DNA of 15,568 bases, from UHGV virus genome UHGV-0473420. The stretch is one strand, 5' to 3'. A program made the translations under genes and the position numbers. Source of the DNA: a virus. Of this stretch, positions 3,933-4,232 are shown piece after piece (the first letter of the stretch is position 1; every line of letters begins with the position of its first letter). The notes below the pieces were generated by a model that was given only the letters and a program-made list of their open reading frames with translations, ran no database searches and was not told where the DNA came from.

Positions 3933-3962
3933 ATTGCTCTAATAATTCCATATTTTTAAAAC
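3933..3962. repeat. 30-bp direct repeat, copy 1 (ATTGCTCTAATAA-N6-ATTTTTAAAAC)
   Basis: Matches 6074-6103 at 13/13 plus 11/11 positions with a 6-nt variable spacer. Begins 2 nt after the stop of the GT8-like gene. Confidence 0.8.
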
Positions 3963-3990
3963 GTGATGTACACTCATCACGTTTTTTATT
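3958..3990. terminator. intrinsic terminator hairpin, probably bidirectional
   Basis: Perfect 11-bp stem AAAACGTGATG / CATCACGTTTT with 6-nt loop, followed by T-run on plus strand; reverse complement is also followed by a T-rich tract. Flanked by 12-bp inverted arms ATTGCTCTAATA (3933-3944) and TATTAGAGCAAT (3987-3998). Confidence 0.6.
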
Positions 3991-4232
3991 AGAGCAATCT
4001 ATAAGGTGCACTATGTGGCCATTCCGACGGAAATATCACTACTGGCTGATCGCCTTTGTTACGCCGACCGGCGGTATCAGGCATGTCATCACCAGGTATC
4101 GCAACAAGAGACTCACCTTAGCCAGAATTTTACAGGCTGCCATAGGTGAGGGACTGGATACAAATTGCGTAGTCCTTCCACCTTCATACTTAGGAAAAAT
4201 GACCGAAGCACAAGCTAATACGGAACTTTGAA

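Follow-up and report, generated by a model that had tools for sequence, protein, structure and literature searches.

The C1 repressor of phage P1 recognizes an asymmetric 17-bp operator with the consensus ATTGCTCTAATAAATTT, and 22 such operators are dispersed over the P1 genome (PMC8546580). The annotated P1 operators match this consensus at 10 to 16 of the 17 positions, with 16/17 for Op88, 14/17 for Op94 and 16/17 for Op99d. C1 binds each operator as a monomer, helped by Lxc. In the bivalent operators of P1 (e.g., Oc1ab/Op99ab), two convergent C1 sites form an imperfect palindrome in which the 17-mers have 6 bp in common and together cover 28 bp. Olpa (former Op94), in contrast, is a single operator, which belongs to Plpa (former P94), the C1-controlled promoter of the late-promoter activator gene lpa. 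Here, operator positions 15-20 provide the -35 hexamer TTGCTA, which is followed by a 16-nt spacer and the -10 hexamer TATTAT at positions 37-42, and Plpa stands in the P1 record without the label 'predicted'. The closest described system, however, is a pair of 17-bp sites between the same flanking genes at the same locus of P1 and P7, that is, OpmgRa and OpmgRb (AF234172 and AF503408; annotation of Lobocka et al. 2004). OpmgRa is described in AF234172 as a 'monovalent C1-controlled operator', former Op86a, that 'controls expression of pmgR and pmgS', and AF503408 has two 'phage repressor C1' binding features under the same match. pmgR has been reported to be essential for virion completion.

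We analysed this locus in a window of 15,568 nt (the whole stretch of DNA studied; virus genome UHGV-0473420), which belongs to a P1-like phage-plasmid: positions 3400-4600 were 98% identical to phages P1, P7, RCS47 and SJ46, and 687 plasmid records, the majority of them from Escherichia and Salmonella, matched positions 3750-4250. A window coordinate equals the locus coordinate of the P1 record AF234172 (our L001) minus 601. When two stretches from 78-95 kb of AF234172 were compared with the window, they aligned at 1-6360 and, further on, at 6593-6678, 13733-14079 and 15283-15568 (lxr). The right-hand part of the window, from about 6360 to 15283, thus differs from P1 apart from one short block; about 8.5 kb (6360-13733 plus 14079-15283) replace the P1 pmgT-hot region and have no counterpart in P1 78-95 kb. 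Within this divergent part, paralogous ORFs starting at 10083, 10688 and 11345 share repeats of 35 to 60 nt, and the ORFs at 7983 and 8901 share a 41-nt repeat. The window lacks the c1 gene, whose position in P1 is past the right end of the window. In MH160767.1 / NC_050153.1 (phage vB_EcoM-Ro157c2YLVW), a feature 'L: RNA-directed RNA polymerase L' lies under the pmgQ-pmgR-pmgS match, a label that we suspect to be an annotation error.

The features that matter for the following are these, in window coordinates:

309-325, minus strand: C1 operator O26 (former Op82), ATTGCACTAATAATTTT, a single copy of the same operator family
3230-3931, plus strand: pmgQ, last gene of the upstream pmgL-pmgQ cluster (ORF list, P1 record)
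3933-3949, plus strand: C1 operator OpmgRa (former Op86a), ATTGCTCTAATAATTCC (protein_bind feature of the P1 record; consensus match)
3934-3962, plus strand: PpmgR, a 'predicted' sigma-70 promoter (P1 record)
3947-3974, plus strand: alternative candidate promoter of pmgR (promoter scan of six lineages)
3958-3985, plus strand: hairpin, stem 3958-3968 / 3975-3985, loop TACACT at 3969-3974; probable intrinsic terminator
3982-3987, plus strand: T6 run, the U-tract of the hairpin; four T double as the last stem bases, and the run overlaps the 3' tail of OpmgRb
3982-3998, minus strand: C1 operator OpmgRb (former Op86b), ATTGCTCTAATAAAAAA (P1 record; consensus match)
4003-4008, plus strand: ribosome-binding site AAGGTG, preceding pmgR
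4013-4231, plus strand: pmgR (ORF list, P1 record)
4233-5495, plus strand: pmgS, directly after pmgR
6074-6090, plus strand: C1 operator OpmgT (former Op88; P1 record), 16/17 to the consensus

The stop codon of pmgQ (TAA, 3929-3931) ends two bases short of the left operator. According to the P1 record, the pmgL-pmgQ cluster is served by LPpmgL plus C1-controlled promoters.

A preliminary description of the window, made from its letters alone, had pointed to a 66-bp composite palindrome at 3933-3998 around an 11-bp stem (3958-3985), and the sequence is as claimed there: ATTGCTCTAATAA (3933-3945) and TTATTAGAGCAAT (3986-3998) are 100% complementary, lie 40 nt apart and enclose the perfect 11-bp hairpin. 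The arms, given as 12 bp, are perfect inverted repeats but really 13 nt long. No other perfect 13-nt inverted repeat within 60 nt was found in the window; by chance, 0.014 such arm pairs are expected (mean of 500 shuffles that preserve dinucleotides), and 1.2% of the shuffles had any. The 13-mer itself occurred four times in the window at no more than two mismatches, against 0.48 expected. The left arm had also been assigned to a 30-bp direct repeat. It does open such a repeat of 30 nt, with its partner at 6074-6103, but the two copies are 87% identical and the repeat is therefore imperfect. Folding of both strands, proposed in the same description as a way to compare alternative structures, was carried out with an 82-nt stretch and returned the nested structure on both strands (-26.9 and -27.0 kcal/mol; z about -7 to -7.7). 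Since the palindrome is perfect, folding of the window sequence cannot tell the strands apart, and only relatives discriminate between them. No Rfam family was found in 3700-4300 at a permissive threshold.

The two arms coincide with C1 operators. The left arm is the first 13 nt of OpmgRa and the right arm (3986-3998) is the first 13 nt of OpmgRb, and the protein_bind features at 82152-82168 and 82201-82217 of AF234172 match the two arms. Both operators agree with the consensus at 14 of 17 positions and at 13 of 13 positions in the 5' core, on a par with Op88, Op94 and Op99d and inside the range of the remaining P1 operators. The four core copies in the window are Op82, Op86a, Op86b and Op88; the repeat partner at 6074-6103 consists of OpmgT and the following block, annotated P2pmgT. 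Syntenic operator copies are also present in Cronobacter phage JK004 and in the metagenomic lineage L209. By homology, we thus predict that the arms are two inverted copies of a dispersed C1-binding site, which bears out the earlier suggestion of a protein-binding operator, and there is a palindrome because these two operators lie in inverted orientation. The Op86a/Op86b pair is already annotated in P1 and the element is already known; the 66 bp of the window are identical to the commonest P1-type sequence among the matches listed. What differs from the P1 record is that the hairpin between the operators is unannotated there and that its predicted -10 hexamer, TAAAAC, is not conserved in relatives.

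The pair does not qualify as a bivalent C1 operator. The two are alike in having convergent sites, but the 17-mers of bivalent operators overlap, whereas the pmgR sites are 32 bp apart, span 66 bp and are annotated as 'monovalent'. The centre-to-centre distance is 49 bp for the 17-mers and 54 bp for the 12-nt cores; a helical-phase argument for C1-C1 cooperation was dropped, because its answer depends on the centre chosen for the asymmetric site. As a separate observation, the counterpart of Oppp/Op83 at 1216-1232 (minus strand) reads TATACACTAATTAATTT in the window and CATGCACTAATTAATTT in P1; the window copy is further from the C1 consensus in the first four positions and matches it at 12/17.

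To see which parts of the element are kept, relatives were collected on the basis of the PmgS protein. The P1-type set comprised 83 sequences, including 81 loci from viral contigs and genomes, picked via PmgS and not via the arms, and the window. More distant were Salmonella plasmids and phage JK004, with about 70% PmgS identity, and the metagenomic lineages L214 (63%), L218 (about 64% to L214), L209-L212 and L217 (52-53%) and L215 (27%). A scan of genome contigs with PmgS yielded only two near-identical Escherichia loci, and in a pattern scan of viral contigs for both arms the matches listed were P1-type copies, which added only variants within the type. In the 83 P1-type loci, none of the 13 columns of the left arm varied and one of the 13 columns of the right arm did, in the single locus L039, while the 14 nt from the right arm to the start codon of pmgR were heavily variable. 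Operator-like arms were kept in all lineages down to 52% PmgS identity, and in every one of these the distance from the first to the last operator base was exactly 66 nt. Among 24 distinct variants, 10 of the 12 outer pairs were invariant; the other two varied only by breaking, and no compensatory change was seen. The breaks come from L209/L211, with ATTACTC... on the left and ...AATCAA on the right (2 of 12 pairs broken), and from L039, with one changed base and one broken pair. Because these rare arm changes are uncompensated, the arms are to be regarded as protein sites rather than as an RNA stem, and by their pattern of conservation they behave as two independent putative binding sites and not as an RNA or DNA stem.

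The inner hairpin behaved differently from the arms in its pairing. It has a 7-bp core, CGTGATG/CATCACG, with four G-C pairs, which is extended by AAAA/TTTT to 11 perfect base pairs; its predicted energy is -13.4 kcal/mol, and it starts 27 nt after the stop codon of pmgQ. A stop codon with a stable hairpin right behind it and then a U-run is the textbook picture of an intrinsic terminator. The stems of the lineages are given below, together with the best promoter-like match discussed further on (-35, spacer, -10; matches to the sigma-70 consensus):

P1 type: stem CGTGATG / CATCACG; TCCATA-16-TACACT, 7/12
Salmonella plasmids: stem CATGGTG / CACCATG; TTTAAT-16-TATCAT, 8/12
JK004: stem CATGGTG / CGCCATG, one U·G; TTTACT-16-TATCAT, 9/12
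L218: stem CATGGTG / CGCCATG, one U·G; TTCATT-16-TATTAT, 8/12, at the same positions
L214: stem CGGCATG / CATGCCG, shifted outward; TTTACT-16-TATCAT, 9/12
L209/L211: stem TGTGGTG / CGCCACA, with U·G; TTGATT-16-TATTAT, 9/12

Across the 24 distinct variants, 95% of the cells of the inner helix were paired; three pairs had compensatory double changes and seven had one-sided changes of the G·U type. The frequent variants within the P1 type (TAAAGC, TGAAAC, CATTACG and CATTGCG) likewise preserve pairing via G·U on the plus strand. Variants that break a pair were confined to one or two loci each among the matches listed, and by our reading many of these pairs of loci are one contig counted twice. 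In all diverged lineages the hairpin had -14 to -19 kcal/mol on the plus strand, compared with -5.8 to -11 kcal/mol on the minus strand. Since only the plus strand tolerates the G·U pairs, the hairpin should function as plus-strand RNA on transcripts coming from pmgQ. Of the six lineage types, five (P1, Salmonella, JK004, L214 and L218) have six T after the stem. Together with the T-run, the hairpin is a probable intrinsic terminator of pmgL-pmgQ transcripts; the label 'terminator' was a reasonable one, and covariation and the asymmetry in favour of the plus strand now back it, for a 3' end that is predicted.

Intrinsic terminators with A-tract/U-tract extension offer the same design, i.e., a 7-bp core, a 6-nt loop, T6 and an upstream complementary A-run. 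Compared with typical ones, the T-run here doubles as the tail of an operator, the loop and the left half of the stem overlap promoter elements, and the 3' ends are predicted. A generic terminator scan of the window did not list the hairpin at 3958-3985, by our reading because the stem extension takes four of the six T and leaves the tail window poor in T. AF234172 has no terminator feature at this place, but this is uninformative because none is annotated in the whole 17 kb inspected. According to PMC8201110, the published P1 map (Lobocka et al. 2004) marks Rho-independent terminators, and therefore the hairpin cannot be claimed to be unrecorded.

Could the arms nevertheless pair in RNA? The preliminary description had considered a long stem that modulates termination, and such an interrupted stem (13 + 11 bp) might also place a processing site (e.g., one of RNase III) at the boundary of the pmgQ and pmgR messages. 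The 82-nt RNA does fold into exactly this nested structure, and read-through transcripts from pmgQ would carry both arms. The order of the elements, however, puts the 3' arm behind the U-tract; it would be transcribed after the decision on termination, so that the arms cannot affect termination via RNA pairing. The duplex is also interrupted by a one-sided internal loop of 12 nt and has no match to an Rfam family, and against pairing stand the uncompensated changes in L209/L211 and L039. Moreover, this 13-mer is conserved even where it stands without an inverted partner, and its conservation can therefore be explained without pairing. We consider a long RNA stem very unlikely. Still more improbable, to a degree that makes it negligible, is a recombination site or an extruding cruciform with lox-like 13-bp inverted repeats. 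Perfect 13-bp arms in a P1-type genome superficially resemble loxP, and extrusion is possible in principle, but a lox-type site has 13-bp repeats around an 8-bp spacer for Cre, whereas the spacer here is 40 bp, the arm sequence is that of a C1 operator and P1 has its annotated lox half-site at another place. Synteny is intact on both sides in all relatives, and diverged lineages have neither perfect arms nor a symmetrical DNA stem. The earlier idea of a recombination site finds no support: the arms repeat a dispersed operator, of which single copies also exist (309-325 and 6074-6090), with no recombinase involved.

In L209/L211/L217 the U-tract is degraded to TCTTGATT while the hairpin is retained, with -16 to -19 kcal/mol, and for this reason termination is maybe not the only cause of its retention. 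The hairpin might then be kept mainly as a 3' stabilizer, as a processing signal or as a promoter feature at the DNA level, with termination being incidental. Also in favour of this, the loop is a -10-like hexamer whose A2 and T6 are conserved in all lineages and which is invariant in the 83 P1-type loci. On the other hand, T6 is kept in five of six lineage types, and the G·U pairs of JK004, L209, L211, L218, L184 and the common P1 variants fit plus-strand RNA only, being mismatches in a DNA cruciform. A mainly non-terminating hairpin is therefore unlikely in our opinion, and termination of pmgL-pmgQ transcripts remains the preferred function.

Further terminator-like structures were seen in the window. 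Directly after pmgS, at 5515-5550, lies a strong hairpin, AATGCTGGTGG-AGTGCGC-CCACCAGCATT, followed by T7; it is not a feature of the P1 record, which is without terminators in the 17 kb inspected. The scan also flagged 4345-4372 (GTGATGACCTCACAGCACGTTTTTTT) as terminator-like; this stretch, about 110 nt into the coding sequence of pmgS, repeats the right half of the hairpin and its T-run at 80% identity. A GC-rich hairpin at 6123-6145, ACATGCCGC-AAG-GCGCGGCATGT, is preceded by an A-rich run and lies 33 nt past the Op88 block (region 6074-6145); it was scored as a minus-strand terminator, and all neighbouring genes are on the plus strand.

The promoter between the operators is a less settled matter. 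Annotated PpmgR has the -35 hexamer TTGCTC at 3934-3939, a 17-nt spacer and the -10 hexamer TAAAAC at 3957-3962; in P1 it matches the consensus at 7 of 12 positions, and its -10 hexamer is without the final T. This hexamer is not conserved: JK004 has TGAAGC and L214 has TGCGGC in its place, and a TGAAAC variant is found among P1-like loci. A promoter scan gave another candidate as the best sigma-70-like match at the same positions in all six lineages. In the window, it has TCCATA at 3947-3952 as the -35 hexamer, a 16-nt spacer and TACACT at 3969-3974, i.e., the hairpin loop, as the -10 hexamer; counted within the element, the hexamers are at 15-20 (16-21 in L209/L211) and 37-42. T1, A2 and T6 of the loop are kept in every lineage, in the forms TACACT, TATCAT and TATTAT. 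In P1 both candidates are weak, with 7/12 each. In every lineage, the loop candidate shares the geometry of Olpa/Plpa within one base. Olpa differs in lacking both a second, inverted operator further downstream and a hairpin that encloses the -10 hexamer, and the P1-type candidate (TCCATA-16-TACACT) is weaker than Plpa. On this comparative evidence, the -10 hexamer of PpmgR may be wrongly annotated, and the conserved loop hexamer may be the -10 of the pmgR promoter, which is the only point that goes beyond the existing annotation. A minus-strand promoter using TTGCTC of OpmgRb as the -35 hexamer was also considered and rejected, since inspection by eye gave no acceptable -10 hexamer at the right spacing in any lineage.

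The two assignments have different consequences. If TAAAAC were the true -10 hexamer, transcripts would start in the hairpin loop. If the loop is the -10 hexamer, the start of pmgR transcripts would be at about 3981, which is both the predicted end of upstream transcripts and the beginning of OpmgRb. This allows a more specific reading, which we put forward only tentatively, as possible rather than probable: the loop would be dual coded as the -10 of a C1-repressed pmgR promoter, with PpmgR misassigned and OpmgRb covering +1 to +17, so that upstream transcription would be handed off by ending where that of pmgR starts. The span of 66 bp would then reflect a joint constraint by two C1 sites, promoter and terminator, possibly including C1-C1 cooperation over about five helical turns.

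With or without this refinement, we hold it highly probable from the comparison of sequences that the 66-bp element is a regulatory junction, in which two convergent C1 operators around the promoter of pmgR-pmgS are combined with a terminator hairpin for pmgQ transcripts. Literature searches on Op86/OpmgR returned nothing relevant, with no C1-binding, 5'-end or 3'-end data for the site, and no transcription start site, term-seq or 3'-end mapping data for P1 were found; actual binding of C1, termination at the T-run and the choice of the promoter hexamer at this locus are what we infer. In the lysogen, C1 on both sites would bracket and silence the sigma-70 promoter of pmgR-pmgS between them. 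C1 is inactivated by Coi and Ant on induction, and the pmgR-pmgS promoter would then fire. Transcripts from the pmgL-pmgQ cluster would stop at the hairpin and T-run, and this termination would make expression of pmgR and pmgS rely on their own, C1-controlled promoter. Since the palindrome is the by-product of two inverted protein sites, it would be no structure in its own right.

In L215, with its PmgS identity of 27%, a different perfect 15-nt inverted repeat, AAGATACTAATTTAT / 17 nt / ATAAATTAGTATCTT, is located at 2704-2750 upstream of a pmgR-like gene. It overlaps a promoter-like pair, TTTACA-17-GATATT, and is without a nested hairpin; no further copy of the repeat was found in the 7.3 kb examined. 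This repeat possibly serves as the operator of another immunity type. Because another inverted repeat thus lies over a promoter-like sequence in the same place, the comparison suggests that pmgR came under repressor control before the present operator sequence arose and that the regulatory logic outlives this sequence.

For the biology of P1, the practical value of these findings is small; the promoter of pmgR is only predicted, and the comparative data offer an alternative -10 hexamer that can be tested. The locus is a compact junction of terminator, promoter and operators whose length is conserved across P1-like phage-plasmids, and knowledge of it might be of use in the engineering of P1 and in the annotation of P1-like plasmids in which these genes remain 'hypothetical'. 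More generally, a composite palindrome as conspicuous as this one can consist of no more than a dispersed repressor operator present twice in inverted orientation, without any structural role.
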